Counted from the stretch's first letter, positions 11,780-27,639 are shown. The stretch is 64,000 nucleotides of DNA from an uncultured Anaerolineae bacterium (GCA_937124585.1 CAKZKT010000127.1:68606-132605); one strand, 5' to 3'. Notes: a model not told the origin generated them from the sequence alone. A program made the numbers and translations.

Positions 11780-12774
<995 letters not shown>

Positions 12775-12855: not shown

Positions 12856-14601
12856 GTGTGCTCGCTGGGGGTCATGAGGTTGGTGCAAGGCAAGGCCAAC
12901 CCATACGGTGCGGCAGATGCGGCGGTCTATCTGTTGCACGGCGATGCCACGGCGGGGCCCATCACGCGGATCGTCCCGGCGGCAGGTGGGGCGTTGCCGG
13001 TCGGCACCAGACGCCCAAATCAGCCGGTGCGCATCAAGCTGTTGCATTTGAATGACCTGCACGGCCGCATTGCCGTCTTGTCGCGGCTGGCGGCCTGGCT
13101 GCAGGCCATGCGCAGGCGCCATGCAGCCGATCCCCATGTGATCGTGCTGGCGGTCACGACGGGCGACGAAAGCGGCGGGCACCTTTCCGATCTGTTGCTG
13201 GGCCACAGTCTCGCCGCCCATCAAACGCATCCCGGCTATCGCCTCCTCTCGCTGGCCGGCATAGACCTCGGCGTGCCCGGCAATCATGACCTGGATCTGG
13301 GCACCGCGACCCTGGCGCGCGCGTGCGACCAGGAGGCGAGCTTTCCTGTGCTGGCGGCGAACGTGACCGACGCGCCGGCCCTGGCCGAGCGCTGTCCGGC
13401 CGCCGTCATCGTCGTGGCCAGAGGAGTGCGCATCGGCTGCATCGGCCTGACCACGCCCGGCCAGGTACATCCGGAGCCGTACAGCCGCCGCCGCATCGCC
13501 GACCCGGTGACGACTGCGGCCCATCTGCTGCCCGCGCTCCGGCCGCTGTGCGACGTGCTGATCGTACTCAGCCATCTGGGCCTGAGCCTGAACCAGCGCA
13601 GCGCCGTGGTGTCCGCCGCAGGCGATGTGGAGCTGGCTCGCAGCCTGCCCCCCGGCGGCGTTCACCTGATCGTTGGCGGCCACACGCACAGCGCGCTGAA
13701 CGAAGCCGGCCTGAGCGCCGAGAACATCGTCAACGGCATCCCCATTGTGCAGGCCGGCAAATTCGGTCAGTTCGTCGGCGAGGTCGAGATCCATATCGGC
13801 GACACGGTCGAGGTCGTGGATGCCAGACTGCACCCCACGCTCGACCTGCCGAACGACGCGCTGTTCGAGCAAGCGCACGTACAGCCGCTGCTGGCGCAGA
13901 TCGAGGCGCAGCGGCAGCGTGTGCTCGGCAGCGTCGCCGCCGACGCCGATCTAAGCGCCGACGCCGTGCGCACTCATTTTGCGGCGGGCGAATCGGCGCT
14001 CGCCAATTTCATCGCGGATGCGCTGGTGTACGGCTGTCGGGCGGCCGGCCACAACGTTGATCTCGCCATCGTGGACGCCAGCAGTGTCCACGATGGCCTG
14101 CAGCCCGGCCAGGTCGTGACACTCGGCGACTGGTTCGGCGTCATGCCGTTTCCCGATGTCGTCTGCCTGCTGCGCCTGACCGGCCGTCAGCTCGAGGCGC
14201 TGGTGCGCGACAACGCGCTGCGTGTCGAGCGGCCCGGCGAGCCGCACACCGAGCGAGGCTTCCTCCACTTCAGCGCTGGCGTGCGCTACGCCATTCGGCT
14301 CGGTCCCACGCGCGAGATGGCCGACGCGGAAGGGATCACGGTAGATGGCCGGCCGATCGCCGCCTGGCATGCGCGCGATTTCGTCGTGGCCGCCGCCAGC
14401 TTTCTCCGGGGGCCAGCCGCAGTCTGGGAGGCGCATGTCGGTGGCCGGCTGCCCCGGCCGCTCTTCGATCTGATGAGCGTCCCGCGCGCGTACACCGGCC
14501 TGCGCGTGCGCGACCTCCTGCTCGATCACATTGCCGCGCAGGGAGGTATTCTGCCGGAGAGCGGCGCGCGCCGCGACGGCCGGGTACGCGTGTTGACATG
14601 A
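12856..14601 (+). CDS. Bifunctional metallophosphatase/5'-nucleotidase family protein
   Basis: Calcineurin-like metallophosphoesterase motifs (LHLNDLHGR, GNHDLDLG, GGHTHS) and a C-terminal 5'-nucleotidase domain. Start is uncertain between 12856 and 12874. Confidence 0.7.
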   Translation: MCSLGVMRLVQGKANPYGAADAAVYLLHGDATAGPITRIVPAAGGALPVGTRRPNQPVRIKLLHLNDLHGRIAVLSRLAAWLQAMRRRHAADPHVIVLAVTTGDESGGHLSDLLLGHSLAAHQTHPGYRLLSLAGIDLGVPGNHDLDLGTATLARACDQEASFPVLAANVTDAPALAERCPAAVIVVARGVRIGCIGLTTPGQVHPEPYSRRRIADPVTTAAHLLPALRPLCDVLIVLSHLGLSLNQRSAVVSAAGDVELARSLPPGGVHLIVGGHTHSALNEAGLSAENIVNGIPIVQAGKFGQFVGEVEIHIGDTVEVVDARLHPTLDLPNDALFEQAHVQPLLAQIEAQRQRVLGSVAADADLSADAVRTHFAAGESALANFIADALVYGCRAAGHNVDLAIVDASSVHDGLQPGQVVTLGDWFGVMPFPDVVCLLRLTGRQLEALVRDNALRVERPGEPHTERGFLHFSAGVRYAIRLGPTREMADAEGITVDGRPIAAWHARDFVVAAASFLRGPAAVWEAHVGGRLPRPLFDLMSVPRAYTGLRVRDLLLDHIAAQGGILPESGARRDGRVRVLT

Positions 14602-14618
14602 CGGGAGTCACGCAATCG

Positions 14619-15356
14619 TCAATGGCGGCCCAGGCGCTCGCCGCCGTCTACGGGCAACACCACGCCAGTGATGTACGGCGCCCGGGCCAGGAAGACAACC
14701 GCATCGGCGACATCGTCGGCCGTGCCCCAGTGACCCAGCAGGGTGCGGCGCGCGACGGCCCGAATCTTGGCCTCAGTGTAATCGGGTGGCGGAAGCACCG
14801 GGCCGGGCGCTATGGCGTTCACGCGCACGGCCGGCGCCAGCTCCATCGCCAGGGCGTAGGTCAGGTTCACCAGCCCGGCTTTGGCCGCCGAATGCGGCAT
14901 GTAATTGGGGAACGGCACGAACGCCGACAAGTCCACGATGTTGATGATGGCGCCGTCGCCATGCGCGGCCAGATGCGGCGCCGCAGCTTTGGCGCACAGG
15001 AACGGCCCTTTCAGCGCGATATCCACGAGCTGATCCCAGGCCGCTTCGTCCAGCTCGGCCCAGGGCGTTTTGCGCCACAGCGACGCGCTGTTGACCAGGA
15101 CATCCAGCCGGCCCAGACCGGCCACGGTCTGCTCGACGAGGCGATTTACCTGGTCGCCCTGGGCCACATCAGCCTGGATCGCCAGAGCCCGGCGGCCTGT
15201 GGCTTCGATTTCGCCGACCGTTGCGATAGCGGCAGCGGCCGAGGAGAAGTAGTTGATCGCCACGTCGGCACCGGCCCGCGCCAGCGCCAGGGCGATGGCC
15301 TTGCCCACGCGCACCGCGCCGCCGGTCACCAGGGCGGCTTTGCCGTTGAGATCCAT
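14619..15356 (-). CDS. SDR-family oxidoreductase, PTR1/FolM-like (atypical TGGxxRxG cofactor motif)
   Basis: Only the C-terminal 246 aa of the 606-aa ORF are gene-like, starting MDLNGKAALVTGGAVRVGKAIA. The start ATG has a GGAGGAG RBS 8 nt upstream. NSAS and SAAK motifs are present. It is divergent from the dehydrogenase at 15525. Confidence 0.75.
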   Translation of the reverse strand: MDLNGKAALVTGGAVRVGKAIALALARAGADVAINYFSSAAAAIATVGEIEATGRRALAIQADVAQGDQVNRLVEQTVAGLGRLDVLVNSASLWRKTPWAELDEAAWDQLVDIALKGPFLCAKAAAPHLAAHGDGAIINIVDLSAFVPFPNYMPHSAAKAGLVNLTYALAMELAPAVRVNAIAPGPVLPPPDYTEAKIRAVARRTLLGHWGTADDVADAVVFLARAPYITGVVLPVDGGERLGRH

Positions 15357-15524
15357 GGGTTTGACTCCTCCGTCATGAGATGGGGTCGGCCGGCGCGAGG
15401 GCACCGTCCTGGCCCACAGTATACCATCATCCGGGCCAAACGAGGCTGCGCGCCGGCCCGATGTGCCGGGCCGCGACGCGGGCGCCCGGCACGTCGGACA
15501 CGAAACAAAAGCGAGAGGAAAAAC

Positions 15525-16547
15525 GTGGCCTATCGCACACTCTTCTTGACCGAGCGCGGCCTGCGCCATCAGCGGGATGCGCTGGCCGCTGCGCCGCCGG
15601 AGCTGGACATCGTCATGCTGCGCCAGCCCGACGCGGCGACACTGCGGCCGCACCTGGCCGACGCGGTCTTCCTGATCAGCGAGCGCAGCGGCGTGATTGA
15701 TCGCGCGCTGATCGCGGCCGCGCCGCGGCTGAAGATGATCCTGCGGCTCGGCTCGCTGGCCCACGACATTGACCTGGACGCCGCACGCGCCGCGGGCATC
15801 GTCGTGGCCACCTGGCCGCAGCGCGGGGTCATCCTGGTGGCCGAACATCTGGTGATGCAGATGCTGGCGCTGGCCAAACGGCTGCGCGAGGTCGAAGCCA
15901 TTGCGCGCTATGCCGGCGACTGGGGCGCGTCGCGGCGCACCGACGAGGACACTTTCGCCTACAACTGGTCGGGGCGGCAGGGGCTGGGCGGGCTGTGGCA
16001 GCAGACGATCGGCATCCTCGGCTTCGGCGAGATCGGCGCGGAGCTGGCGCGGCGTCTGAGCGGCTGGGGTTGCCGCGTTCTCTACCAGCGCAGACGCCGG
16101 CTGCCCGCCTGGCAGGAGCAAAAGCTGGGCATCGTCTACGCGACGTCGGATGAATTGCTGGCCGAGAGCGATTTCCTGGTCAATCTGTTGCCCTATTTCC
16201 CGACCACCGATCTGGCGCTGCGCGGCGAACACTTCGCCGCCATGAAGCCGGGCGCGTTCCTGGTCAGTTGTGGCAGCGGCAGCGTACTGGACGAAGCCGC
16301 GCTCGCGCAGGCGGTCCGCAGCGGGCATCTCGCCGGCGTCGCGCTCGACACCTTCGAATGGGAACCGCTCCGGCCAGACAACCCGTTGCGCCGCCTGGCT
16401 GCCGAAAGCCCAGCCTGGAACGTCCTGATGACGCCGCACACGGCGGCCGGCGCGCCGGCCGCCGGCGTTGTCCCAACCCGCAGCGACGATTACACGCCTA
16501 TCCTGCGCTTCCTGGCCGGAGAGTCGGTGGCAAATCGGCTGGCGTGA
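15525..16547 (+). CDS. D-isomer-specific 2-hydroxyacid dehydrogenase family protein
   Basis: GTG start at 15525 with a GAGAGGA RBS; the upstream 309 codons of the 14598 ORF are junk. NAD-binding region (GILGFGEIGAELARRL) and an LVSCGSGSVLDE...TPHTAG catalytic region. Confidence 0.75.
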   Translation: MAYRTLFLTERGLRHQRDALAAAPPELDIVMLRQPDAATLRPHLADAVFLISERSGVIDRALIAAAPRLKMILRLGSLAHDIDLDAARAAGIVVATWPQRGVILVAEHLVMQMLALAKRLREVEAIARYAGDWGASRRTDEDTFAYNWSGRQGLGGLWQQTIGILGFGEIGAELARRLSGWGCRVLYQRRRRLPAWQEQKLGIVYATSDELLAESDFLVNLLPYFPTTDLALRGEHFAAMKPGAFLVSCGSGSVLDEAALAQAVRSGHLAGVALDTFEWEPLRPDNPLRRLAAESPAWNVLMTPHTAAGAPAAGVVPTRSDDYTPILRFLAGESVANRLA

Positions 16548-16642
16548 CCGCCCATGGCCCGGCCCGGCAGACAGGCAGGCAACGCGCCGGACAGTGTCGC
16601 AGGTGTCCGGCGCACGATGATCTTTTTCAAAGAGACGCGAGT

Positions 16643-18028
16643 ATGCAAATCATCATGCCCAAACTGGGTCTGACCATGACCCACGGCACCATCATCGAAT
16701 GGCTCAAGGCGCCTGGCGAGGCCGCGCAGGCCGAGGAGGCCCTGTGCACCTATGAGACTGAGAAGGTCACCCTGGAGCTGACCGCGCCCGAGGATGGCGT
16801 ACTGGTGCAGATCCTGGCGCCGGCCGGGACCACCGTGCCTGCCGGGACGCCCGTGTGCGAGTTTCGGGGCAAAAGCGAGCGACGCGAGCGGAGCGAGCAT
16901 CGCGATCTCGCGCGCACCACCGGCCAGGCCCAACCCCCATCCCCCAGCCCCCAGCCCCCGGCTTCCGGCTTGCTTCTCGCCACCCCGAAGGCGCGCAGCC
17001 TGGCCCGCCAGCTCGGCATAGATCTGACCAGGCTTTCCGGCACCGGTCCGGCCGGGCGGATCCAGGCTGCCGACGTGTTGGCAGCCGGAGCAAGCGCGCG
17101 ATCCGGGCCGACGCCGGCCGCCCCCGCCGAGATCAAAGCCACGCCGCTGGCCCGTCGCATCGCGGCGTCCGAGGGCGTTGACCTGAGCCGCCTCACCGGA
17201 ACCGGCCCCGATGGCGTCATCACGCGCGAAGATGTGGAACGGGCCATCAAAAGCCGAGAGCCCGGCATGGGCGCGGCGGCCCCCAGCCCTCAGCCCCCCG
17301 CCGGTCCCGGCACCCTCATCCCGCACGCCACGCTCCGCCGCACCATCGCCGAGCGGATGAGCCAGAGCGCGTTCACCGCACCGCATGTGACGCTGATGAC
17401 CGAGGCCGAGGCGACGAACCTGGTTTCGGCGCGCGATCAGCTCAACGAGGAAGTGATGCGCAACGCGGCGGCTGCCGAAACCACCGGAGCCCGGACGAAG
17501 ATATCCTACAACGCGCTCCTGGCCGCGCTGGTCGCTCGCGCGCTGCGCGAGCATCCCCACCTCAACGCGCGTTGGGAGCCGGAGGGCATCCGCCTGCTGG
17601 ATGAGATCAACATCGCCCTGGCCGTGGACACCGAGCGCGGCCTCGTGACGCCGGTGCTGCGTGGGGTGGACACGCTGTCCATCCTCGCGATCCAGCGCGG
17701 CTACGACGCGCTGATCGCCCGCGCGATGGCCGGCAAATCGTTGCCCGACGACTTCGCGGCCGGCACTTTCACCATCACCAACCTGGGCGCGTTGGACGTG
17801 GACGGCTTCACGCCGATCATCAACCCGCCACAGGCTGCCATCCTGGGCGCAGGCCGTATCATCGAGAAACCGGTGGCGCGCGACGGCGCCGTGGTCATCC
17901 GGCCCATGATCACCCTGAGCCTGAGCTTCGACCACCGGATTGTGGACGGCGCACCCGCAGCGCGTTTCTTGCAGCGCGTGAAGCAGCTGGTGGAACGGCC
18001 CATGGCGTTGTTAATCCGGGAAGTGTGA
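16643..18028 (+). CDS. Dihydrolipoamide acyltransferase (E2 of a 2-oxoacid dehydrogenase complex): lipoyl domain + two peripheral-subunit-binding domains + catalytic domain
   Basis: Begins MQIIMPKLGLTMTHGTIIEWLK with the lipoyl-Lys context (ETEKV). Two PSBD repeats are present (ATPKARSLARQLGIDLTRLSGTGPAGRI and ATPLARRIAASEGVDLSRLTGTGPDGVI). The catalytic motif is DHRIVDGA. Confidence 0.85.
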   Translation: MQIIMPKLGLTMTHGTIIEWLKAPGEAAQAEEALCTYETEKVTLELTAPEDGVLVQILAPAGTTVPAGTPVCEFRGKSERRERSEHRDLARTTGQAQPPSPSPQPPASGLLLATPKARSLARQLGIDLTRLSGTGPAGRIQAADVLAAGASARSGPTPAAPAEIKATPLARRIAASEGVDLSRLTGTGPDGVITREDVERAIKSREPGMGAAAPSPQPPAGPGTLIPHATLRRTIAERMSQSAFTAPHVTLMTEAEATNLVSARDQLNEEVMRNAAAAETTGARTKISYNALLAALVARALREHPHLNARWEPEGIRLLDEINIALAVDTERGLVTPVLRGVDTLSILAIQRGYDALIARAMAGKSLPDDFAAGTFTITNLGALDVDGFTPIINPPQAAILGAGRIIEKPVARDGAVVIRPMITLSLSFDHRIVDGAPAARFLQRVKQLVERPMALLIREV

Positions 18029-18075
18029 GGCGTCAAGCGGGCGTCAGAGAGGGAGCGAGGAGCGCGCAGAGCGTG

Positions 18076-19446
18076 ATGGCAGAACGAAACACGATAATGC
18101 TCATCGTCAACGGCACGTTGCTGACGAGCGCAGGCGGCCGACTGGCGACCTGGCCGGGATGGCTGGCAATCGAGGGCGACCGCATCGCTGCTGTGGGCAC
18201 CGGAGACGCGCCGGCCGAATGGCAGACGCGCGCGGAGCGCACGATTGACGCCCGCCACATGGCGGTGCTGCCCGGCCTGACGAACGCCCATACCCACCTG
18301 GAGCAGACCTTCATGCGCGGACTGGCCGACGACCGGCCGCTGCTGCGCTGGCTGAAAGAAGTCATATGGCCGCTCCAGGCGGCCATGACGCCGGAGGACA
18401 TGTACCTGGCCGCCAGGCTGGGGCTGGTGGAAAACCTCCGTTGCGGCGCCACGCGGGTGATTCAGCACCACAAATTGCCCGGCCGGGAGCACGTGGCCGC
18501 AACCTGTCGCGCCGCGGCCGAGGTCGGCCTCCGGATGACCCTGGCTCGCGGCTGGATTGACCTGGGACCCACGGGCGAACCGCTGGACACCATCCTGTCC
18601 GATCTGGATTGGCTCGACGGCCTGCTCCACTCTCCGGCCTGCAAGCCGCAAGCAAAAATCAGCCTCGCCTCTGGGCCGCTGGCGCCTTGGCGCTGCTCCG
18701 ACGACGCCATGCGCCAGGTCACAGCCTGGGCTCGCGATCGCGGCGTGCCCACCCACATCCATGTGGCCGAGGCGCAGGACGAAGTCGAGATGATGCTGGC
18801 GCGCTGCGGGAAACGGCACATCGAATGGCTGGCCGGCCTGGACTGCCTGGGGACGGACACCCAGCTCGTCCACGCCGTGCACGTCACCGACGCCGAGCTC
18901 GATCTGATCACGCAATCGGGGGCGCTCGTCGTGCACTGTCCCACCAGTAATATGTATCTGGCTTCGGGCGCTGCGCCGGTGCGGAAGATGCTCGACCGCG
19001 GCATTCCCGTGGCCCTGGGCACCGATGGCCCAGGCTCCAACAACTCGCAAGATCTGCTGGAGTGTGCCAAAATCGCCGCCCTGTTGGCCAAACAGGCGAC
19101 CGGCGACGCCCAGGCACTTTTGCCGGCCGACGTGATCCACATGATGGTGGGCTTCGCTCCGGGGGCATCGGACGCGCCGGCCGGCGTGTCCGGCGCGCTG
19201 ATGGCCGGCGCGCCGGCAGATATCACCATCGTCAATCTCAACAACGTGCGCTGCCAGCCGGTCTACAGCGCCGCCTCTGCGCTGGTCTACAACGCCTGCG
19301 GCACCGATGTCCACACGGTCATCGTGGCCGGCGAAATCCTGGTGGACGCGGGTCAGGTGACCGTGCTGGATGAGGCCGGGCTGATCGAACAGTGCCGGCT
19401 AGCAGCTGCCGCACTGATGAAACGGGCAGGGATCCAATGCGACTGA
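18076..19446 (+). CDS. Amidohydrolase, COG0402-type (MtaD/SsnA/guanine-deaminase-like metal-dependent deaminase)
   Basis: HxH metal motif (LTNAHTHLEQ) and later HVAE, plus C-terminal D residues typical of the amidohydrolase fold. Start is the ATG at 18076, preceded by GAGGAG. Confidence 0.75.
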   Translation: MAERNTIMLIVNGTLLTSAGGRLATWPGWLAIEGDRIAAVGTGDAPAEWQTRAERTIDARHMAVLPGLTNAHTHLEQTFMRGLADDRPLLRWLKEVIWPLQAAMTPEDMYLAARLGLVENLRCGATRVIQHHKLPGREHVAATCRAAAEVGLRMTLARGWIDLGPTGEPLDTILSDLDWLDGLLHSPACKPQAKISLASGPLAPWRCSDDAMRQVTAWARDRGVPTHIHVAEAQDEVEMMLARCGKRHIEWLAGLDCLGTDTQLVHAVHVTDAELDLITQSGALVVHCPTSNMYLASGAAPVRKMLDRGIPVALGTDGPGSNNSQDLLECAKIAALLAKQATGDAQALLPADVIHMMVGFAPGASDAPAGVSGALMAGAPADITIVNLNNVRCQPVYSAASALVYNACGTDVHTVIVAGEILVDAGQVTVLDEAGLIEQCRLAAAALMKRAGIQCD

Positions 19447-20510
19447 ACTTCACCGATGACGATTGGGCCCGCATCGAGCGGAATTGGACGGCCTGGTGGG
19501 CCGGCGAGCTGAATCGGCCGCTGGTAATGGTCGAACATCTCGATCCGCCGGCCGATCCCGGGCGGCCCTATCCCACCTCATTCATCCCGTACTACGGCCT
19601 GCACAGATCGGCCGATGCGCTGCTCGATCTGTACGAGACAAAGCTGGCCGCCATGCACTGGTTCGGCGATGCCTTTCCGAAATGGTGGCCGAATTACGGG
19701 CCGGGCATCGTGGCCGGCTTTCTGGGCGCGCGCGTCTCGGCGACCTGGGACACGGTCTGGTTCGATATGCCGGAACCCATCCCCATCGAGGCGCTTGCGT
19801 TGAACTACGCGGCCGACGACCCCTGGTGGGCGCAGGTCCGTGAAGTCACCCGGCAAGCCGTGGCGCGCTGGGGCGATCAGGCGACCATCGCCTACACCGA
19901 TCTGGGCGGCAACCTGGACATCCTCGCCTCGCTGCGCACCACGCAAAATCTGCTGACCGATCTGTACGATGCGGCGGAGGCAGTGCAGGCGGCCGTACAA
20001 AAGATCACCGCGCTCTGGTTGCGCTACTTCGCCGAGCTGGAAGCAATCATCGCGGCCAGCCCGCGCGGGCGGGCGTCCTGGGCGGCGCTCTGGGCACCGG
20101 GAACGTGCTACATGCTCCAGAGCGACTTCGCCTACATGATCTCCCCGCGCATGTTCGAGCGCCTCGTGTTGCCCGATTTGACGGCGTGCTGCGACGCCAT
20201 CGAGTATCCCTTCTATCACCTGGACGGCAAAGGCCAGATCGTACACCTGGACATGCTGCTGGCGCTGCCACGGCTGCGCGGCATCCAGTGGATCCCCGGT
20301 GACGGCGCGCCGCCGCCCGAGGCATGGCTGCCCCTGCTCCGACGCATCCGGGAGGCAGGCAAGCTGTGTCAGCTCTATGTGTCGGCCAAAGGCGCGCTGG
20401 AGATCGTGCGGGCGCTGGGCGGCAAGGGCTTCGCCTTGTTCATCACCGACGACATGGCCGAGGCCGAAGCTCACGATTTTCTGACCGAGATCTACAAAGA
20501 GGGCACATGA
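19437..20510 (+). CDS. Conserved hypothetical protein (about 357 aa; possibly TIM-barrel URO-D-like fold, function unknown)
   Basis: The ATG at 19437 overlaps the amidohydrolase stop (ATGCGACTGA), and the stop overlaps the next start (ATGA). No recognisable motifs; weak resemblance to the URO-D/methyltransferase superfamily only. Confidence 0.45.
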   Translation: MRLNFTDDDWARIERNWTAWWAGELNRPLVMVEHLDPPADPGRPYPTSFIPYYGLHRSADALLDLYETKLAAMHWFGDAFPKWWPNYGPGIVAGFLGARVSATWDTVWFDMPEPIPIEALALNYAADDPWWAQVREVTRQAVARWGDQATIAYTDLGGNLDILASLRTTQNLLTDLYDAAEAVQAAVQKITALWLRYFAELEAIIAASPRGRASWAALWAPGTCYMLQSDFAYMISPRMFERLVLPDLTACCDAIEYPFYHLDGKGQIVHLDMLLALPRLRGIQWIPGDGAPPPEAWLPLLRRIREAGKLCQLYVSAKGALEIVRALGGKGFALFITDDMAEAEAHDFLTEIYKEGT

Positions 20511-21289
20511 CGGAATCAGATTTGTATCCCCTGACCACTTCCCTGGCCGGCCAGGTGGCGCTGGTAACGGGCGGCGCAGTGCGGGTGGGTCGGGTCATTT
20601 GCCTGGCGCTGGCAAGCCGGGGGGCCAGCATCGCGTTCACCCACCTGCCGGGCGAGCCGGCCGAGGAGACGGCTGCGGCGATAGCAGCCGCATTGACACG
20701 CTCAGAGGCCGGCCAGGAGGCGCACGTCCTGGCGCTGCCGATGGACGTGCGCGAGCTCGGCGCGGCGCAACGCACGGTCGCACAGGTCATTGAGCGCTTC
20801 GGCCGGCTCGACATCCTGGTGAACAACGCGTCGGTCTGGCTGCGCGCGCCATTTCTGGAGATCACGCCCGACGCGTGGCAGACCGCGCTCGACATCAACC
20901 TGACCGGGCCGTTCCTGATGAGCCAGGCTGCCGCGCCGCACATGCTGCGGCAAGGCGCCGGCCTGATCATCAATATCACCGACCTGTCAGCCTATCAGAC
21001 GTGGCGGGAATACGCGCACCACTCGGTCACCAAAGCGGGCCTGGTCGCGCTCACCCGTGTCATGGCGGCCGAGCTGGCGCCGGCCGTGCGGGTGAATGCC
21101 ATCGCGCCCGGCACCGTATTGCTGCCCGAAGGCGCCACCGAAGCTAAGCGCCGATGGGCAGAAAACAATTCCCTCCTCAAGCGCGTCGGCCGGCCCGAAG
21201 ATGTCGCGCGCACGGTGCTTTTCCTGGCCGACAGCGATTTCGCCACCGGCGCGGTGTATTTCATTGACGGAGGGCGCGCGTTGGTATAG
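20507..21289 (+). CDS. SDR-family oxidoreductase, PTR1/FolM-like (paralog of 14619-15356)
   Basis: The motifs MTESDLYPL...LVTGGAVRVGRVIC, NNAS and LAPAVRVNAIAPG are shared with the other atypical SDR. ATGA overlap with the upstream gene. Confidence 0.8.
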   Translation: MTESDLYPLTTSLAGQVALVTGGAVRVGRVICLALASRGASIAFTHLPGEPAEETAAAIAAALTRSEAGQEAHVLALPMDVRELGAAQRTVAQVIERFGRLDILVNNASVWLRAPFLEITPDAWQTALDINLTGPFLMSQAAAPHMLRQGAGLIINITDLSAYQTWREYAHHSVTKAGLVALTRVMAAELAPAVRVNAIAPGTVLLPEGATEAKRRWAENNSLLKRVGRPEDVARTVLFLADSDFATGAVYFIDGGRALV

Positions 21290-21382
21290 AGAAGCGTCAA
21301 CGACAGACGTCAGGCAGCGAGCGTGCTGCGCGGCTGACGTCCGACGTTGCGCGTTTCACGTTTCACCATTCGAGGTCAATCC

Positions 21383-22375
21383 ATGGCTATCACCGATTAT
21401 CCTGACGAAAAGCTGCTTCATCTTTACCGCCAGATGTACCTGGTGCGCGAATTCGAGCTGCGCGCCATCAACGAGCGACGGGCCGGGCTGATCCCCGGCT
21501 TCATTCACAGCTGCGTCGGCCAGGAGGCGACCGCAGTGGGCGCGTGTGCCGCGCTGGAACCGACCGACGTGATCACCAGCACGCATCGCGGCCACGGCCA
21601 TTTGATCGCCAAAGGCGGCGAGCCGAAGTACATGATGGCCGAGCTGGCCGCGCGCACAACCGGCTATTGCGGCGGCAAGGGCGGTTCGCTGCACATGAGC
21701 GACTTCAACCTGGGCATCCTCGGCGCCAACGGCATCGTGGGCGGCGGCATTCCCATCGCGGTCGGCGCGGCATTGGCGTTCCAGCAGCGGAAGGAGCCGC
21801 GCGTGGCGCTCAGCTTCTTCGGCGACGGCGCGGCCAACGAGGGCGCGTTCCACGAGGCACTGAACCTGGCCGGTCTCTGGAAGCTGCCGGTGATCTTCTT
21901 CTGCGAGAACAACCTCTACGGCGAGGGCACACCGCAGGCCAAACAGGCGCCCGTGGCCGACCTGGCGATTCGGGCCGCCGGCTATGCCATGCCCGGCGTC
22001 ATCGTGGACGGCAACGACGTGCTCGCGGTCTACGAGGCGACGAAAGCAGCGGCCGACCGCGCGCGAGCCGGCGGCGGGCCGACCCTGATCGAGGGCAAAA
22101 CCTATCGTTACCGCGGCCACTACGAAGGCGATCCGATGGTCTACCGCTCGAAGGAAGAGATGGAAGCCTGGAAACTCCGCGATCCGGTGACCGGCTTCCG
22201 GGCGCGACTGCTGGCCGAGGCCGGCCTCGCCGAGGAAAAACTGCACGCCCTGGAGGCCGAGGTGCAGGCAATGCTGGATACGGCCGTTGCCTTCGCCGCT
22301 GCCAGCCCCAAACCCCAGCCCCAGACCGCGCTGGAAGGAGTGTACGGAGACACCGACGGCGGCCTGGTATTCTGA
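21383..22375 (+). CDS. 2-oxoacid (pyruvate/acetoin-type) dehydrogenase E1 component, alpha subunit (TPP-dependent)
   Basis: TPP-binding GDG...NN motif (FFGDGAANEGAFHEALNLAGLWKLPVIFFCENNLYG) and an HGH...G region. Start is the ATG at 21383 with a GAGGT RBS. Confidence 0.85.
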   Translation: MAITDYPDEKLLHLYRQMYLVREFELRAINERRAGLIPGFIHSCVGQEATAVGACAALEPTDVITSTHRGHGHLIAKGGEPKYMMAELAARTTGYCGGKGGSLHMSDFNLGILGANGIVGGGIPIAVGAALAFQQRKEPRVALSFFGDGAANEGAFHEALNLAGLWKLPVIFFCENNLYGEGTPQAKQAPVADLAIRAAGYAMPGVIVDGNDVLAVYEATKAAADRARAGGGPTLIEGKTYRYRGHYEGDPMVYRSKEEMEAWKLRDPVTGFRARLLAEAGLAEEKLHALEAEVQAMLDTAVAFAAASPKPQPQTALEGVYGDTDGGLVF

Positions 22376-22396
22376 CCGAACATCGCCGCCAGACGC

Positions 22397-22422
22397 GCCG
22401 GGCATCTCGCAGAGTGCCCGGC
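22397..22422. repeat. Degenerate copy of the palindromic repeat family (GCCGGGCA-N10-TGCCCGGC) in the E1alpha-E1beta intergenic spacer
   Basis: Its 8-bp arms and 10-nt loop (TCTCGCAGAG) closely match the GTGCCAGGCATCT(C/T)GCAGAGTGCCTGGCAC elements at 38.7 kb and 43.9 kb. Confidence 0.6.
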
Positions 22423-22480
22423 ACGGAGGTACTGGAGGTCAGGGACGGGAAGCCGGCAGCCAGAAGCTGGGAGGAAACAC

Positions 22481-23467
22481 ATGCGCACAATCACCTACAG
22501 TCAAGCCATTTACGAAACCATGCGCGAAGAGATGGCGCGCGATCCCAACGTCATCCTCATCGGCGAGGACGTGGGCACCTTCGGCGGCGTGTGGGGCGTC
22601 AGTAGCGACCTGATGAAGCTCTTCGGCGAAGATCGCGTGCGCGACACGCCCATCAGCGAGACCGCCATCATCGGCGCGGCGCTGGGCGCCGCCATGATGG
22701 GCCTGCGGCCCATCGCCGAGATCATGTTCGGCGACTTTCTGCCCGTGGCCGGCGATCAACTGGTGAATCAGCTCGCCAAAGCGCGCTACATGAGCGGCGG
22801 CAAGGCCAAAGTGCCGGTGACCGTGCGCGTGACCACCGGCGCGCCCGGCTCGGCCGCGGCACAGCACTCGCAGTCGCCCGAGGGCTGGTACATGAACGTG
22901 CCCGGCCTGAAGATCGCTGTGCCCGCCACGCCTGCCGATGCCAAAGGATTGCTCCGCACGGCCATCCGGGGCGAGGACCCGGTGCTCTTCTTCGAGCACA
23001 AAATGCTCTACGCCACGAAAGGCGAAGTGCCTGAGGACCCCGACTTTGCGGTGCCCTTCGGGCAGGCCGCGATCCGGCGAGAGGGCCACGACGTGACAAT
23101 CGTCGCCATCGGCGGGATGCTGCCCAAAGCGCTGGAGGCGGCGGATATGCTCGCCCGAGAAGGGATCGCGGCCGAAATCGTTGACCCTCGCACCCTGGTG
23201 CCGCTAGACAAGGCGACGATCATCGCCTCGGTGCACAAGACTGGCCGGGTCGTGATCGTCCACGAAGCGCACAAGCGCCTGGGGCCAGGGGCCGAGATCG
23301 CAGCCATGCTCGCCGAAGAGGCCATCGGCTATCTGGACGGCCCCATCGTGCGCGTGGCAGCCAAAAACGTGCCGCTGCCCTACAGTCCGGAGCTCGAGAA
23401 CTTCGTGCTGCCGCAGACCCAGGACATCGCAGAGGCAGCGCGTGGGCTGGCGACGCGCAAACTGTGA
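22481..23467 (+). CDS. 2-oxoacid dehydrogenase E1 component, beta subunit (transketolase-like)
   Basis: GGAGG RBS. Translation matches the E1-beta family (MRTITYSQAI...GEDVG.FGGV...). Confidence 0.85.
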   Translation: MRTITYSQAIYETMREEMARDPNVILIGEDVGTFGGVWGVSSDLMKLFGEDRVRDTPISETAIIGAALGAAMMGLRPIAEIMFGDFLPVAGDQLVNQLAKARYMSGGKAKVPVTVRVTTGAPGSAAAQHSQSPEGWYMNVPGLKIAVPATPADAKGLLRTAIRGEDPVLFFEHKMLYATKGEVPEDPDFAVPFGQAAIRREGHDVTIVAIGGMLPKALEAADMLAREGIAAEIVDPRTLVPLDKATIIASVHKTGRVVIVHEAHKRLGPGAEIAAMLAEEAIGYLDGPIVRVAAKNVPLPYSPELENFVLPQTQDIAEAARGLATRKL

Positions 23468-23608
23468 GGCCCCATCGTGCCCGGTCGGCCGATCTATGAT
23501 ATCGCGCAGCGCCAGGAACGGCACGTCCTGGTATGATGGGCCGTTGATGGCCGGCGTCCGCACAGACGGCCGGTCATCCAACGACCGGGATTTGCCGAGG
23601 AAACGACC

Positions 23609-24388
23609 ATGCCCGACTTTTCCATCTTCAGCCTGGCTGGGAAAACCGCCCTAGTGACCGGCGGCAACAGCGGCATCGGCCTGGGCATCGCGCGCGGTTT
23701 CGTCAAAGCAGGCGCGCGCGTGCTCATCAGCGGCCGGAATGAGGAAAAATCTGCCGCGGCGCTGGCCGCGCTGCGCGCCATCGGCGGTGCAAATGCCGCG
23801 CAGTGGCTGGCGACCGACCTGGCCGACACCGATTCCATCCCCGCTTTCTTCTCGGCCGCTGCGGCCGCGCTCGGCGGGGTGGACATCCTGGTGAACAGCG
23901 CCGGGATCACCTATCGCAGCCGCGCCGACCAGATGCCGCTGGCCGAATACGAGCGCGTGCTGCGCGTCAACCTGACCGCGCCCTACGTCCTCTCGCAATG
24001 CTTCGCGCGAGCGCGCATCGCCGCCGGGCTGCCCGGCAGCATCATCTTGATCGCCTCGCTGATGAGCGAAGCCTCGCGGCCCACCACATCGGCCTACACT
24101 GCCAGCAAAGGCGGCATCCGCCAGCTCGTGCGCGCGCTGGCCGTGGACTGGGCGCCGTTCGACATCCGCGTCAACGGCATCGGCCCCGGCTTCATCCGCA
24201 CGCCCATGAACCAGGTACTGATGGACAACCCCGAATTCGACGCCTGGGTGAAACGCCGCACGCCGCTCAGCCGCTGGGGCCTGCCTGAGGACTTCGAGGG
24301 GGTCGCGGTCTTCCTGGCCTCCGATGCCGCGCGCTTCGTGACCGGTCAGATCGTGTACGTAGACGGCGGGTGGCTGGCGACCTTCTGA
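23609..24388 (+). CDS. SDR-family oxidoreductase (classical; KduD/gluconate-5-dehydrogenase-like)
   Basis: TGGNSGIGLG cofactor motif, NSAG, and a YTASK catalytic tetrad. GAGGAA RBS. Confidence 0.8.
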   Translation: MPDFSIFSLAGKTALVTGGNSGIGLGIARGFVKAGARVLISGRNEEKSAAALAALRAIGGANAAQWLATDLADTDSIPAFFSAAAAALGGVDILVNSAGITYRSRADQMPLAEYERVLRVNLTAPYVLSQCFARARIAAGLPGSIILIASLMSEASRPTTSAYTASKGGIRQLVRALAVDWAPFDIRVNGIGPGFIRTPMNQVLMDNPEFDAWVKRRTPLSRWGLPEDFEGVAVFLASDAARFVTGQIVYVDGGWLATF

Positions 24389-24449
24389 CGGCTAGAGCGC
24401 CACAGCCGAACGTCGCCGCGCGGCGGGCACGTCTGCGGCGATTCTCGGC

Positions 24450-25157
24450 TCAGGCCGGCCGCACCCCGCGCACCCAGCCGACCATGCCGCCGGCCCTGGC
24501 CGCCATGCTGATCCCGGTCAGGCCGGCCGCGGCTGCCAGCTCAGCCCAAGCTGACAGGCTCAGCCGATGGTGCGCCTCGGCCAGTCGGGCATAATTGACG
24601 AAGCTGTAGCGGGCAAAGCCGATGATGCGGCGACCGTCCATGAAAGCCGCCGCGTTGGCCACGCTCATCGCGTCAGTGGGGTTCAAAAATGCGACGATCC
24701 CGGCCGGCCGCGCCACCCGACACATCTCGCACAGGCCCACGGCCGGATCGGGCAGGAGGAACAGCAGGTTCGTCGCCACCACGCCGTCGAACGTGGCCGA
24801 TCTGAACGGCAAGCAGCGCGCGTCGGCCATCAACCAGTGCAAAGCCGATGTCGGACCGGCGGCCTGCGCCAGTGCGGCCGCGCGCGCTGCCATCTCCCAC
24901 GACCTGTCGCAGCCGACGGCCAAACGGCTGTCGGCCGCGGCAAACAACCGCGGCAAAAGGCCCGGTCCGGCGCCCACGTCGCAAACGGATGCGCCGGCCG
25001 GCAACGCCACAAAACGGGCAAACGCGGCCAACATCTCGCCCCACGCGCCCGCCTGCGCCTGCGTGAAATATTCCACATCGTCCGGCGCGGCCACCGGTTG
25101 GTCAGAGTCAGCGGCCGAGGCGTCGGCCGCGCCGGGCTGCTGCGGGTAACTTTCCAT
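24450..25157 (-). CDS. Class I SAM-dependent methyltransferase
   Basis: Motif I (VCDVGAGPG). Start is the internal ATG at 25157 (MESYPQQ...) with a GAGGGGG RBS; the longer 25223 start is less supported. Confidence 0.65.
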   Translation of the reverse strand: MESYPQQPGAADASAADSDQPVAAPDDVEYFTQAQAGAWGEMLAAFARFVALPAGASVCDVGAGPGLLPRLFAAADSRLAVGCDRSWEMAARAAALAQAAGPTSALHWLMADARCLPFRSATFDGVVATNLLFLLPDPAVGLCEMCRVARPAGIVAFLNPTDAMSVANAAAFMDGRRIIGFARYSFVNYARLAEAHHRLSLSAWAELAAAAGLTGISMAARAGGMVGWVRGVRPA

Positions 25158-25267
25158 CTGGCCCCCTCGTATGGTTTCGCCTGCATTGTAGCAAGAAGAC
25201 CGCGGCAGGGCAATTGCATGCAAACGGCGTCGGTGCTATAATCGGCTACCGTTTCGAGGTAGAAGGC

Positions 25268-26281
25268 ATGACAGACACCCCATCTCTGCGACACGAAGCA
25301 TACATCGCAGCGCGCGCTGCGGCTGCCTGGGCCGACCTGAGCGATCACGGCTGGCTGCGCGTGACCGGCCGCGATCGGCTCGCCTTTTTGCAGCGGCTGA
25401 CGACCAATGACCTGCGCGGGCTGACGCCGGGCGCCGGCCTGCCTACCGTCCTCTGCTCGGCGACCGGCCGGGTCATCGCGCCGCTCCTGGTCAGCGCCGG
25501 GCCAGACGTGCTCTGGCTGCGCACACCGCTCGGCCGTGCCGACTTCCTGGCCGCGCATTTCAATCGCCTGATCTTCTGGAACGACGAAGTCGAGGTGACG
25601 GATGCGAGCGCGACGACTGCCCAATTCGGCCTCTTCGGCCCGGCTGCCGCGCGCCTGCTCGCCGGGCTGACCGACGCTGCGCTCGACGATCTGCCCGCCT
25701 GTGGCTGGCGCAGCGGCCATCTGGACGAGACGTCGGTCATGATCCTGCGCGGCGGCGCGCTGGAGCCGGCCGACTGGACGATCATCGTGGAAGCCGATCG
25801 GGCCGTCGCGGTGTCCGCGCGGCTGGCCGCGGTCGCGCCGCAACTAACGGCCGCTCAGGTAACGACCCTGCGCGTCGAAAAGGGCCTGCCGGCCTGGCCC
25901 AACGAGCTGAACGACCAGGTCACGCCGCTGGAGGTCGGCCTGCGCGGTGCGATCAGCGATAACAAAGGCTGCTACACCGGCCAGGAGGTCATCGCGCGGC
26001 AGCTCAACTACGACAAGGTGACGCGCCAGCTGGTCGGCCTGTGTCTGCCGGCCGACGCAGCCTGGGCCGATCTGACCGCGGCGGCAATTCGGACGGGCAG
26101 CGGCCGCAGCGGCTTCGTGGGCACGGTCGTCTGGTCGCCCGCGCTGGGCCGGCCCATCGCCCTGGCCATCGTCCCGCGTGATGTCGCCGCGACCGGCCAA
26201 ACCGTCATGATCGCCGGACCCGGGCAGCCGGTGACGGCTACCGTTGTCACGCTGCCGTTCACGGAAGGATGCCTGCCATGA
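25268..26281 (+). CDS. Folate-binding YgfZ/CAF17-type protein (GcvT-like aminomethyltransferase fold)
   Basis: GcvT_N-like domain with a C-terminal KGCYTGQE motif characteristic of YgfZ. Start is the ATG at 25268 with a GAGGTAGAAGG RBS. Confidence 0.7.
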   Translation: MTDTPSLRHEAYIAARAAAAWADLSDHGWLRVTGRDRLAFLQRLTTNDLRGLTPGAGLPTVLCSATGRVIAPLLVSAGPDVLWLRTPLGRADFLAAHFNRLIFWNDEVEVTDASATTAQFGLFGPAAARLLAGLTDAALDDLPACGWRSGHLDETSVMILRGGALEPADWTIIVEADRAVAVSARLAAVAPQLTAAQVTTLRVEKGLPAWPNELNDQVTPLEVGLRGAISDNKGCYTGQEVIARQLNYDKVTRQLVGLCLPADAAWADLTAAAIRTGSGRSGFVGTVVWSPALGRPIALAIVPRDVAATGQTVMIAGPGQPVTATVVTLPFTEGCLP

Positions 26282-27096
26282 ACATGACCTGGCGTCTGCT
26301 GGTGCAGCGTGCGCCGGCGCGCGGGGCCTGGAACATGGCCGTGGATGAGGCCATCGCGCGCGGGGTGGCCGACGGAACGTCGCCGCCGACGCTGCGTTTC
26401 TATGCCTGGGCACCGCCCTGCGTCTCGCTCGGCCGCAATCAGCCGCTGGCCGCACTGGATGTTGACCGCTGTCGGGCGCTGGGCTACGAGATCGTGCGTC
26501 GGCCGACCGGCGGTCGGGCCATCCTGCACACCGATGAGTTCACCTACAGCGTCGTCGCACCGCCCGATCTGCCGGTCATGCAGGGGCTGGTGCTCGACAG
26601 CTATCTGCGGCTCAGCCGGGGCCTGGTGGCCGGCCTGGCGCGGCTGGGGATCAGGGCCGAGCCGGCGCCGGGCAGCGCGCGCACCGGCCCCAATGCGTCG
26701 GCCGCCTGTTTCGAGGTCCCCTCGGCGTACGAGCTGATGGCAAATGGCAAAAAGTTGCTCGGCAGCGCGCAAAACCGTCGCGCCAGGGTAGTGCTCCAAC
26801 ATGGCTCGCTGCCGCTGTACGGCGACCTGACGCGACTGGTGGAATGTTTGGCGCTGGCCGACGAAGCGGAGCGCGCCAAACTGCGCCTGGCGTTGAACGG
26901 ACACGCCGCTACGGTCGAACAGCTGCTCGGCCGACGGGTATCGTTCGAACAGGTGGCAGCGGCCATGCAAGACGGCTTCGCCGAGGCGCTGGGCCTCAGA
27001 CTGGAACCGGCCGAGCTGACGCCGGTCGAGCTGACTCTGGCCGAACAGTTGCTGCGCCAACAATACGAAGACCCAGCCTGGACTGCACGGGTATGA
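26269..27096 (+). CDS. Lipoate/octanoate-protein ligase family protein (BPL/LPL catalytic domain)
   Basis: BPL_LPL-like core (...RRPTGGRAILH...KLLGSAQ...). Overlaps the ygfZ-like stop; exact start is uncertain (26269, 26278 or 26284). Confidence 0.65.
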   Translation: MPAMNMTWRLLVQRAPARGAWNMAVDEAIARGVADGTSPPTLRFYAWAPPCVSLGRNQPLAALDVDRCRALGYEIVRRPTGGRAILHTDEFTYSVVAPPDLPVMQGLVLDSYLRLSRGLVAGLARLGIRAEPAPGSARTGPNASAACFEVPSAYELMANGKKLLGSAQNRRARVVLQHGSLPLYGDLTRLVECLALADEAERAKLRLALNGHAATVEQLLGRRVSFEQVAAAMQDGFAEALGLRLEPAELTPVELTLAEQLLRQQYEDPAWTARV

Positions 27097-27629
27097 CTGC
27101 CGATCCTCTTTTCTCATCCATCACGATGCCTGATGTGTACGAATACACCGCGGCCGGCGGCGTCGTGCGAGACAGCGCCGGCCGCATCCTGCTGATCGAA
27201 CGCTGGGTGTGGCGCGATGGCCGGCTGACGCACGAGGTGCGGTTGCCCAAAGGCCACGTCGAACTGGATGAGACCGATGCACAGGCCGCTCTGCGCGAAG
27301 TGTGCGAGGAAACCGGCTACTGCAGCCTGCGCATCATCGCCGATCTGGGCGACGATCTCACCCATTTCGTGCGCAATGGCCGACCGGTGCGCCGACGAGA
27401 GCACTACTACCTGATGGAGCTGACCGATCCGCAGCGCGGGGAGCCATCCTTCGACAGCCCCACCGCCGAGGAAGCGCTCTTTCGGCCGCGCTGGGTGACC
27501 GATCTGGCCGAGGCGGAGGCACAAGTCACCTTCGAGTCGGAACGACGCTTCCTCCGCAAAGCGCGACAGGCGCTCGCCATGCACACGCCCGACGCGGCCG
27601 CGAATTCTACTGGCGCCGAAGGCGCCTGA
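27093..27629 (+). CDS. NUDIX hydrolase
   Basis: Nudix box (GHVELDETDAQAALREVCEETGY). ATGA overlap with the upstream gene. Confidence 0.75.
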   Translation: MTADPLFSSITMPDVYEYTAAGGVVRDSAGRILLIERWVWRDGRLTHEVRLPKGHVELDETDAQAALREVCEETGYCSLRIIADLGDDLTHFVRNGRPVRRREHYYLMELTDPQRGEPSFDSPTAEEALFRPRWVTDLAEAEAQVTFESERRFLRKARQALAMHTPDAAANSTGAEGA

Positions 27630-27639
27630 CGACAAAAAC

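Follow-up and report, generated by a model that had tools for sequence, protein, structure and literature searches.

Acetoin dehydrogenase systems (AcoA/AcoB/AcoC/AcoL) join a heterotetramer-type E1 (E1α/E1β) with a thiamine pyrophosphate (TPP) motif to a lipoyl E2 with a peripheral subunit-binding domain (PSBD). Their genes run in the order E1α-E1β-E2(-E3), in the plasmid operons compared here in a catabolic context beside sugar-type ABC transporters, and their E1 converts an α-hydroxyketone to an acyl-lipoyl group plus an aldehyde instead of decarboxylating a 2-oxoacid. Pyruvate dehydrogenase (PDH) complexes of the E1α/E1β type, mitochondrial and alpha-proteobacterial, have the same domain set and catalytic motifs. 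A third system relevant here is cluster I of Cupriavidus sp. LA-1, in which a pterin deaminase makes lumazine, and a three-subunit lumazine dehydrogenase of the xanthine oxidoreductase family, an Amidohydro_2 isomerase acting on 6,7-dihydroxylumazine (DHLI) and a prenylated-FMN (UbiD-type) xanthine-8-carboxylate decarboxylase lead on to xanthine (Doi et al. 2025, PMC12391406). That study reports such clusters from Proteobacteria and Actinomycetota alone and does not deal with pterins that bear a C6 side chain (PMC12391406). We examined a stretch of 64,000 nucleotides from an uncultured Anaerolineae bacterium (GCA_937124585.1, CAKZKT010000127.1:68606-132605; hereafter the window), in which six genes on the plus strand between positions 16643 and 23467 encode an E2, a COG0402 amidohydrolase/deaminase (AMH), a protein of the uroporphyrinogen decarboxylase (URO-D) fold (UNK), a short-chain dehydrogenase/reductase (SDR_mid), E1α and E1β. 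We tentatively propose that the E1/E2 components form an Aco-type TPP/lipoyl module that cleaves C-C bonds within a conserved Anaerolineae catabolic cluster, and that the substrate is most likely a pteridine-type N-heterocycle.

The window has a G+C content of ~67%, and a gene-like codon-position G+C pattern runs along the plus strand across the region. Its proteins have exact matches on a MAG contig of an Anaerolineae-type Chloroflexota (GCA_036742915.1) and on two metagenome contigs at JGI. About 50 open reading frames (ORFs), chosen by codon composition, were scanned against Pfam, and NCBIfam models were judged by their curated cut-offs. All six genes of the initial annotation are present where it had placed them and with the domains it had assigned. 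The E2 gene (16643-18028) encodes a 461-aa dihydrolipoyl acyltransferase with a Biotin_lipoyl domain, two E3_binding domains and a 2-oxoacid_dh domain. It is followed by AMH (18073-19446, with an alternative GTG start at 18025; Amidohydro_1, E 2.9e-51), the 357-aa UNK protein (19437-20510), SDR_mid (20507-21289, 260 aa), the TPP-binding E1α (21383-22375, 330 aa; E1_dh, E 1e-90) and E1β (22481-23467, 328 aa; Transket_pyr, 5e-43, and Transketolase_C, 5e-42). Two further genes immediately upstream matter to the argument: a second SDR (SDR_up, 14619-15356), identified by Pfam and by the NCBIfam model PRK09135, which lies on the minus strand and is divergent from the E2 operon, and a D-2-hydroxyacid dehydrogenase identified by Pfam (HADH2, 15525-16547, plus strand, with the start taken from the NCBI/JGI gene call).

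To compare this gene set across relatives, we used 12 exact-protein look-ups; the identities given for each locus are those of its E1α to the window E1α. The six-gene order of the window recurs in L017 (89%), as GH31-165-aa protein-Amidohydro_2-UbiD-URO-D-E2-AMH-UNK-SDR-E1α-E1β, and in L004/L005 (84%), as Amidohydro_2-UbiD-E2-AMH-UNK-SDR-E1α-E1β followed by an 86-aa ThiS-like protein, three xanthine-oxidoreductase subunits and, further on, a YgeY-type M20 hydrolase. L012 (81%) has the same order minus AMH (GH31-E2-UNK-SDR-E1α-E1β). Recurrence of the order in these loci, whose flanks differ, shows that the genes interposed between E2 and E1α were not inserted recently in a single lineage. The association is also conserved where the order is not, because L014 (84%; Amidohydro_2-URO-D-UbiD-URO-D-SDR_up-URO-D-AMH-SDR_mid-E2-E1α-E1β-ThiS-like-xanthine oxidoreductase) and L018 (86%, on a frameshift-ridden long-read contig; SDR_up-E2-AMH-SDR_mid-E1α-E1β-aldehyde ferredoxin oxidoreductase-xanthine oxidoreductase-ornithine transcarbamylase [OTCase]) keep the genes linked in other arrangements. 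AMH, UNK and SDR_mid are missing from two loci: L015 (79%), which has E2-E1α-E1β with orthologues of HADH2 and of several genes further upstream in the window (an ABC importer, an FTCD_C protein and an HTH-cupin regulator), and L016 (78%), with URO-D-aldehyde dehydrogenase-E1α-E1β-SDR_up-HADH2.

E2 lies 5' of E1α in seven of the eight loci, with three genes interposed in the window, L004 and L017. The atypical layout with E2 ahead of E1α that was first noted here is thus real, but it is a trait of the whole clade and not of this locus: E2 upstream of E1α is the clade rule, and the exact gene order of the window is only one of the ways in which a recurrent set of genes is arranged. The same holds for the twin PSBDs of E2 (aa 110-146 and 164-199; nt 16970-17080 and 17132-17239), which share 19 of 33 residues. 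They are present as described but are not unusual, being typical of the E2 clade (L014, L015 and L017); a single PSBD is found in the E2 of L004 and in that of L022, the one Rhizobiales aco-type E2 with a canonical catalytic domain. We conclude that the cluster is a conserved, non-canonical association of Aco/PDH-like E1 and E2 with a deaminase, PTR1/FolM-like reductases and a URO-D-fold protein. No description of this gene combination in Chloroflexi was found in the literature, and the conserved arrangement probably marks an undescribed breakdown pathway.

The lack of an E3 gene noted in the initial annotation extends to the relatives. No Pyr_redox domain was detected in the ~50 Pfam-scanned ORFs of the window, and six-frame translation of the window and of loci L001-L020 showed no class-I disulfide-reductase active-site motif (CxxxxC). 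In all eight loci the neighbors of E1/E2 are catabolic genes, and lpd is never among them. Given the two PSBDs that E2 retains, we propose that dihydrolipoyl-E2 would be re-oxidized by an E3 encoded elsewhere in the genome. A lipoate ligase-like protein of the LplA/LipB family (26278-27096, plus strand; Pfam LplA-B_cat, NCBIfam matches under their cut-offs) is encoded 2.8 kb downstream and may lipoylate E2, its membership of the unit being uncertain.

The catalytic motifs of the complex are intact: E1α has the TPP motif GDG-x(24-27)-NN at aa 147-177, and E2 has the lipoyl-lysine motif ETEKV at aa 38-42 and the catalytic DHRIVDG at aa 430-436. By NCBIfam cut-offs, E1α and E2 are not assigned to PDH. 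E1α scores 361.7 against TIGR03182 (PDH E1α; cut-off 393.85), and E2 scores 316.9 against TIGR01349 (PDH E2; cut-off 445) and falls below every other NCBIfam E2 equivalog cut-off. E1β exceeds the cut-off of the PDH-beta model NF006667 (370.4 vs. 321), which is a subfamily-type model. We also ranked the E1 proteins by identity against 72,556 annotated plasmids and chromids, a ranking of similarity and not a phylogeny. The top matches (52-54%; 53-54% for E1α/E1β of Aminobacter and Sinorhizobium) come from Aminobacter, Sinorhizobium and Rhizobium, in operons that run DRL_cat oxidoreductase-E1α-E1β-E2(-lpdA), and the E2 of the Aminobacter operon is named 'acetoin dehydrogenase dihydrolipoyllysine-residue acetyltransferase' by NCBI's Prokaryotic Genome Annotation Pipeline (PGAP). 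E1α is 45-49% identical to genes of Thermus (annotated acoA), Acinetobacter, Enterococcus and Clostridioides difficile, for which the PGAP names are generic only, and at most 43.5% identical to PGAP-named pdhA. Similarity ranking nonetheless places E1α/E1β with the acetoin dehydrogenase-type E1s (45-54% identity overall), ahead of PdhA, which suggests acyloin cleavage rather than 2-oxoacid decarboxylation.

The likeness to Aco systems has limits. The gene order here is (HADH2-)E2-...-E1α-E1β; unlike Aco operons, the cluster is without lpd, a DRL/AcoX-like gene or AcoR; and the E2, with its two PSBDs, is just 25-30% identical to aco-type E2s. As a separate observation, the nearest E1 relatives from cultured organisms are on the Rhizobiales plasmid loci L021:7613-12344 and L022:7604-13777, in operons headed by the DRL_cat (DXR-like) oxidoreductase. 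The Sinorhizobium aco-type operon adjoins a sugar ABC transporter, a sugar kinase and lpdA, which hints that Rhizobiales Aco-type modules serve deoxy-ketose or sugar catabolism.

The strongest competing explanation is that the complex is an ordinary housekeeping PDH with lpd elsewhere, and that AMH, UNK and the SDR are unrelated neighbors or pyruvate feeders kept in place by genomic inertia. Several results fit it. The closest solved structure to E1α is human PDH E1α (236 bits, vs. 164 for the branched-chain 2-oxoacid dehydrogenase, BCKDH), and no acetoin-type E1 appears among the PDB sequence matches to E1α. The E1β score above the PDH-beta subfamily cut-off and the lipoate ligase-like gene downstream agree with it as well, and, as expected for a central enzyme, E1α identity stays at 76-89% over the 120 best 90%-identity clusters. 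The neighbors also change: L015 and L016 pair the same E1 with an aldehyde dehydrogenase, an iron-containing alcohol dehydrogenase, a saccharopine dehydrogenase, GH31 and a methylenetetrahydrofolate reductase, a range of partners that would suit a small, generic substrate (pyruvate or acetoin, for example). The YgeY- and OTCase-type genes that adjoin the cluster in L004 and L018 could be read in the same way, since the purine fermentation pathway to which such genes belong ends in pyruvate. However, E1α and E2 miss the PDH equivalog cut-offs, the at most 43.5% identity to pdhA leaves every named pdhA outranked by Aco-type E1s, all eight loci have catabolic surroundings with no adjacent lpd, and the operon layout of the window is non-canonical. 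In addition, the interposed genes are overlapping or tightly spaced and stay linked despite reordering, as in L014. We regard a housekeeping PDH as unlikely.

The reductases are the first of the partners that point to pteridines. SDR_mid and SDR_up are 47-49% identical to each other, and both carry the motif TGX3RXG (as TGGAVRVG), which is kept in all nine orthologues checked. This motif replaces TGX3GXG and, according to De Crécy-Lagard et al. (PMC1971073), is highly characteristic of the pteridine reductases PTR1 and FolM. The pteridine reductase model PRK09135 is also the best NCBIfam model for both proteins, with scores of 213 bits for SDR_mid and 226 bits for SDR_up, under the cut-off of 288. 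At the catalytic center, SDR_mid has NITD...H-x3-K and SDR_up has NIVD...H-x3-K, so that an Asp occupies the position of the catalytic Ser of classical SDRs and a His stands four residues before the Lys (YAHHSVTK and YMPHSAAK). PTR1 presumably likewise has an Asp in place of the classical Ser, but the SDRs differ from the PTR1/FolM enzymes in having His, not Tyr, four residues before the catalytic Lys, and no PTR1 was found among the 60 best of 92 PDB sequence matches to the SDR. The description 'PTR1-like' in the initial annotation is therefore reasonable at the level of the motif and only putative at the level of the family. SDR_mid orthologues are 75-81% identical in L004, L012, L014 and L017, and SDR_up orthologues lie beside E1/E2 in L014, L016 and L018.

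AMH has the HxxE catalytic segment, as HVAE. Its best NCBIfam models are of the methylthioadenosine (MTA)/5'-deoxyadenosine deaminase type, all under cut-off (best 320 vs. 609). Its best PDB matches are 3LNP, 4DYK, 4GBD and 4F0R. Across models and PDB relatives, MTA/S-adenosylhomocysteine (SAH)/5'-deoxyadenosine deaminases rank first, followed by 8-oxoguanine and isoxanthopterin deaminases. By these scores, AMH belongs to a COG0402 subfamily that matches no characterized subgroup above cut-off. The initial annotation had read the layout as a dedicated pathway in which the deaminase and reductase steps produce a non-standard 2-oxo substrate for the complex. The dedicated pathway itself is consistent with the conservation of the interposed genes, the lack of a nearby E3 and the position of E1α and E2 outside the PDH cut-offs. 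The origin proposed for the substrate does not suit the families of these enzymes: the amines that COG0402 enzymes deaminate are heteroaromatic or of the amidine type, and the SDR bears the motif of PTR1/FolM pteridine reductases. Neither chemistry would be expected to yield a 2-oxoacid, so AMH and the SDR are unlikely to be 2-oxoacid producers. If the substrate is a 2-oxoacid, HADH2 is a better candidate producer than either.

UNK had no match in Pfam (including PF01208) or NCBIfam, and no PDB match by sequence profile. Its AlphaFold2 model, built from a 120-sequence alignment, has a mean confidence (pLDDT) of 96.1, and Foldseek matched it to human and bacterial URO-D (E ~1e-8) and to MtaA (4ay7; 1e-7) with TM scores of 0.55-0.59, and more weakly to MetE. 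The match to the URO-D fold has a Foldseek probability of 1.0 and a TM score of ~0.58 over ~345 columns at 10-14% identity. On this model, UNK has a URO-D/MtaA/MetE-like (β/α)8 fold. Comparison by hhalign with the Pfam-recognizable URO-D-like neighbors in L014 and L016 gave a probability of just 23-25%, but still aligned the UNK segment 'SP.MF..FV.P.L' and its H-x-D-G motif to these proteins. UNK differs from the URO-D/MtaA-MtbA/MetE superfamily in lacking a PF01208 match and a nearby corrinoid protein. It is rich in invariant Trp, and an invariant H261-L-D263 stands where the Zn methyltransferases carry H-x-C. We considered a Zn-thiol methyltransferase role of the MtaA/MetE kind for UNK and rejected it on account of H-x-D in place of H-x-C, the lack of a nearby corrinoid protein and the weak hhalign result. 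Many UNK homologues are labeled 'MetH' by JGI.

The UNK family is large, with 1988 matches among 90%-identity clusters and 2082 representatives at 50% identity (E ≤1e-3), and nearly all of its source-named matches are from Chloroflexota or Anaerolineae. Most homologues that are 60% identical to UNK are not beside E1/E2, and a profile search of genome contigs with the UNK alignment returned three loci, none with E1/E2. In L008, a UNK homologue lies beside orthologues of the window's ABC importer, of a first D-2-hydroxyacid dehydrogenase (HADH1) and of a phosphoesterase, all three upstream of E2 in the window.

How these enzymes could act together can be outlined as follows. A pteridine-type N-heterocycle would be imported by the adjacent ABC importer. 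E1α/E1β and lipoyl-E2 would cleave a C-C bond beside a carbonyl and hand the acyl fragment to CoA, in partnership with the two PTR1/FolM-like reductases, the COG0402 deaminase, the URO-D-fold barrel protein and a D-2-hydroxyacid dehydrogenase. The SDRs may adjust the oxidation level of the ring or of the side chain. A dehydrogenase may turn a C6 diol side chain of the biopterin or neopterin type into an α-hydroxyketone, and E1 may then split this acetoin-like group, with E2 releasing acetyl- or glycolyl-CoA. AMH may convert a pterin to lumazine, which in related genomes could then be passed to the neighboring Amidohydro_2, UbiD and xanthine-oxidoreductase enzymes. A pteridine-type substrate is the best-supported guess because the TGX3RXG SDRs, the FTCD_C gene at the ABC operon and the GH31 genes converge on it, together with these neighbors: in L004, L014 and L017, genes for Amidohydro_2, UbiD and a three-subunit xanthine oxidoreductase surround AMH and E1/E2, as some of them do in L018. 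FTCD_C is linked to the ABC operon in both the window and L015, and a NUDIX hydrolase and a phosphoesterase gene nearby were also counted in favor. Among the neighbors in L004 and L018, YgeY and OTCase are genes that we take to belong to anaerobic purine degradation. The surroundings of E1/E2 in L004, L014, L017 and L018 thus hold the same enzyme families as the Cupriavidus pterin/lumazine cluster, a likeness at family level only, and E1/E2, a PTR1-like SDR and a URO-D-fold protein are all missing from the Cupriavidus cluster.

The boldest form of this proposal is that an Aco-like complex was recruited to strip the C6 side chain of substituted pterins, acting with the PTR1/FolM-type reductases, a new pterin deaminase subfamily and a new URO-D-fold enzyme; we regard it as doubtful. 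Biopterin- or neopterin-type pterins would be imported, possibly as glycosides or phosphates, and a dehydrogenase would oxidize the C6 diol side chain to an α-hydroxyketone. A 1'-hydroxy-2'-oxopropyl side chain is acetoin with one methyl group exchanged for the pterin ring and would be a natural target for an Aco-type enzyme: E1 would cleave the acetoin-like group, and E2 would release acetyl- or glycolyl-CoA.

A number of observations weigh against a pteridine substrate. Searches of the plasmid collection with AMH, UbiD and Amidohydro_2 gave no orthology-level link to any characterized pterin enzyme. There, AMH is equidistant (33-36% identical) from annotated 5'-deoxyadenosine and 8-oxoguanine deaminases. 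The relatives' UbiD is nearest (~39%) to HmfF-like furandicarboxylate decarboxylases, with its best plasmid match in an hmf-like furan cluster (L019) and a Paracoccus match in a ubiquinone UbiD/UbiX/UbiU-V locus (L020), and the Amidohydro_2 matches are weak. The relatives' Amidohydro_2 proteins are 432-452 aa long with a C-terminal extension, vs. the ~250-aa α/β pair of DHLI, and the window itself is without Amidohydro_2, UbiD or xanthine-oxidoreductase genes. The differing partners of E1 in L015 and L016, the high conservation of E1α, the His of the SDRs in place of the catalytic Tyr of PTR1 and the location of most of the UNK family away from E1/E2 count on the same side.

We also weighed a dedicated 2-oxoacid dehydrogenase, in which HADH2 would oxidize a D-2-hydroxyacid, imported or released from a glycoside, E1/E2 would convert the product to an acyl-CoA, and the pterin-like traits would be coincidental. 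HADH2 shares the strand of E2 and ends 95 bp 5' of it, with orthologues (50-62% identical) that cluster with E1/E2 in L015 and L016. The adjacent CUT1 sugar-type ABC importer, GH31 glycosidases near the cluster in L012, L016 and L017, and the UNK homologues of L006 and L007, which neighbor sugar genes and GFO/IDH/MocA oxidoreductases, are also compatible with such a route. It leaves the conserved COG0402 deaminase and the two TGX3RXG SDRs unexplained, however; HADH2 is absent from L004, L012, L014 and L017; and the E1 similarity ranking favors the Aco type. We consider this route improbable. Least credible, and very improbable in our view, is a salvage of nucleoside by-products. Here AMH would be a deaminase of the 5'-deoxyadenosine/MTA/SAH type, partnered by the phosphoesterase and the NUDIX hydrolase, and E1/E2 would cleave a sugar-derived deoxy-ketose. 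The top NCBIfam and PDB relatives of AMH and the UshA-like and NUDIX genes of the neighborhood agree with it, but AMH scores far under the equivalog cut-offs and is absent from L012, the known shunts are not represented by any phosphorylase, isomerase or aldolase, and relatives do not keep the phosphoesterase and NUDIX genes together with E1/E2. An Aco-type module acting on a pteridine-type compound remains our preferred, if tentative, reading.

We then considered the extent of the transcription unit. Because HADH2 lies so close upstream on the same strand and has orthologues that travel with E1/E2 in L015 and L016, E2 is probably not the first cistron, as had been supposed, and HADH2 is probably the first gene of the unit. 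Both of the stop/start overlaps quoted as signs of translational coupling are exact: AMH and UNK overlap in ATGCGACTGA at 19437-19446 (ATG at 19437, TGA at 19444-19446), and UNK and SDR_mid overlap in ATGA at 20507-20510 (ATG at 20507, TGA at 20508-20510). Only two of the five junctions overlap. The others are gaps of 45 bp between E2 and AMH (from the GTG at 18073, the start used by NCBI), 93 bp between SDR_mid and E1α, and 105 bp between E1α and E1β. If AMH began at the alternative GTG at 18025, it would overlap the stop codon of E2. In L004 and L017 the AMH/UNK and UNK/SDR junctions are spacers of 20-35 bp and not overlaps.

The E1α-E1β spacer (22376-22480, plus strand) contains a hairpin resembling repetitive extragenic palindromic (REP) elements (core at 22401-22418), with a fold energy of -43 kcal/mol (z -2.1) and, after it, the ribosome-binding site GGAGGA. 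The palindrome, with the core GGCATCTYGCAGAGTGCC within the hairpin GCCNGGCATCTYGCAGAGTGCCNGGC, occurs five times in the window, vs. 0.03 copies expected by chance: once in this spacer, three times in tandem at 38730-38858 and once at 43873-43890, all on the plus strand. The copies lie at or beside gaps between called genes, and the tandem array (38730-38858) extends over the 5' end of the ORF drawn at 37645-38808. In relatives, the spacer holds unrelated, genome-specific long hairpins, with one arm made of heptamer repeats such as (TACTGCA)n and the other arm complementary (L017:10994-11138, L016:10994-11097, L014:10994-11095 and L004:9071-9213), with minimum free energies down to -69.7 kcal/mol and z scores to -8.2 (in L017). 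The position of the hairpin is thus conserved and its sequence is not, and no U-tract follows the hairpins. Promoter and terminator scans performed at chance level, with no intergenic terminator on the plus strand, and Rfam returned no RNA family at E up to 1 within 14000-28000. Since the REP-like hairpin would, by analogy with REP elements of other bacteria, lie inside a transcript, the gaps are no evidence for separate units, nor do they speak for co-transcription.

Upstream of this unit on the plus strand, a transcriptional regulator with Pfam HTH_3 and cupin domains (6820-7440) precedes a CUT1-type ABC importer operon (7557-11206; Pfam) comprising an SBP_bac_1 binding protein (7557-9023) and two permeases (9079-10230 and 10232-11206), with no ATPase gene. 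A homologue of the regulator (33% identity) adjoins the orthologous transporter in L015, and orthologues of the importer (52-68% identity) lie beside E2-E1α-E1β in L015 and beside the UNK homologue in L008. Next comes the FTCD_C protein, which is cyclodeaminase/methenyl-folate cyclohydrolase-like (11222-11779; Pfam PF04961, E 1.4e-7, above cut-off). Its L015 orthologue is 55% identical, and its gene shares 4 bp with that of HADH1 (11776-12774; Pfam 2-Hacid_dh_C, E 9e-55), whose L008 orthologue is 71% identical. The UshA-like phosphoesterase (12856-14601; Pfam Metallophos and 5'-nucleotidase_C) has a 48% identical orthologue in L008, and its NCBIfam matches are far under the cut-offs.

Downstream, a classical SDR (23609-24388, plus strand) with the motif TGGNSGIG is gluconate-5-dehydrogenase/KduD-like by Pfam, NCBIfam and a motif check; it starts 141 bp 3' of E1β and is a possible final gene of the unit. 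A methyltransferase on the opposite strand, the NUDIX hydrolase and a DUF503 protein are also encoded downstream of E1β. The plus-strand GcvT-fold gene at 25268-26281 was considered as a lipoyl-linked partner and rejected. It is YgfZ/CAF17-like by NCBIfam (domain model score 61.8 vs. a cut-off of 49) and not a glycine-cleavage T protein, because its gcvT score is far under the cut-off (113.7 vs. 235.85).

Other features were noted in the window and in relatives. Ahead of the regulator and the ABC operon, positions 2606-6785 (plus strand) encode a GcvT-like aminomethyltransferase, a GlcD-like FAD_binding_4 protein and a GlcF-like Fer4_8/CCG protein; the aminomethyltransferase scores 233.5 bits, marginally under the gcvT cut-off of 235.85. 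In L008, such a GcvT/GlcD/GlcF trio plus a COG0402 amidohydrolase is divergent from the UNK homologue (60% identity), and this set mirrors the window region. The Amidohydro_2 proteins of L004 (221-1579) and L017 (974-2272) begin with H6-x-H8, like the reported Zn ligands of the DHLI β subunit. Both have a C-terminal extension of ~140 aa, of which the final ~60-70 residues, past a variable linker, are conserved between the two and appear DUF1858-like by eye. A sugar-acid-type cluster on the minus strand (37645-43811) encodes a GFO/IDH/MocA oxidoreductase, an MFS_2 (GPH-family) transporter, an IlvD/Edd-family dehydratase and an acetolactate synthase-like TPP enzyme, with a divergent TetR regulator beside it (44031-44684, plus strand). 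HpcH/HpaI and RraA-like aldolases are found at 30675-32310 (minus strand), a carbon-nitrogen hydrolase and a Beta_elim_lyase-type PLP enzyme at 32941-34935 (plus strand), and a 616-aa fusion of an NAD-dependent epimerase/dehydratase-like domain to a classical SDR domain at 44740-46590 (plus strand). An HNH endonuclease ORF (475-1002, minus strand) and an integrase-core (rve) ORF (60734-61435, plus strand) near the two ends of the window suggest mobile-element remnants, and G+C drops to 0.61-0.63 around 58-62 kb.

If the complex were merely PDH, the finding would shrink to an unusual operon layout in Anaerolineae. If the linkage is functional, the lipoyl/TPP dehydrogenase complex would be a dedicated C-C-cleaving tool in heterocycle catabolism and not part of central metabolism. 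The cluster also provides a first genomic handle on a large unnamed URO-D-fold family (~2000 clusters at 50% identity) and on a COG0402 deaminase subfamily. The sole pathway described so far (PMC12391406) omits the bacterial fate of side-chain pterins (biopterin, neopterin and folate fragments), for which the cluster offers candidate enzymes; if this is true, pterin side-chain removal would supply the missing upstream branch of the lumazine-to-xanthine pathway.

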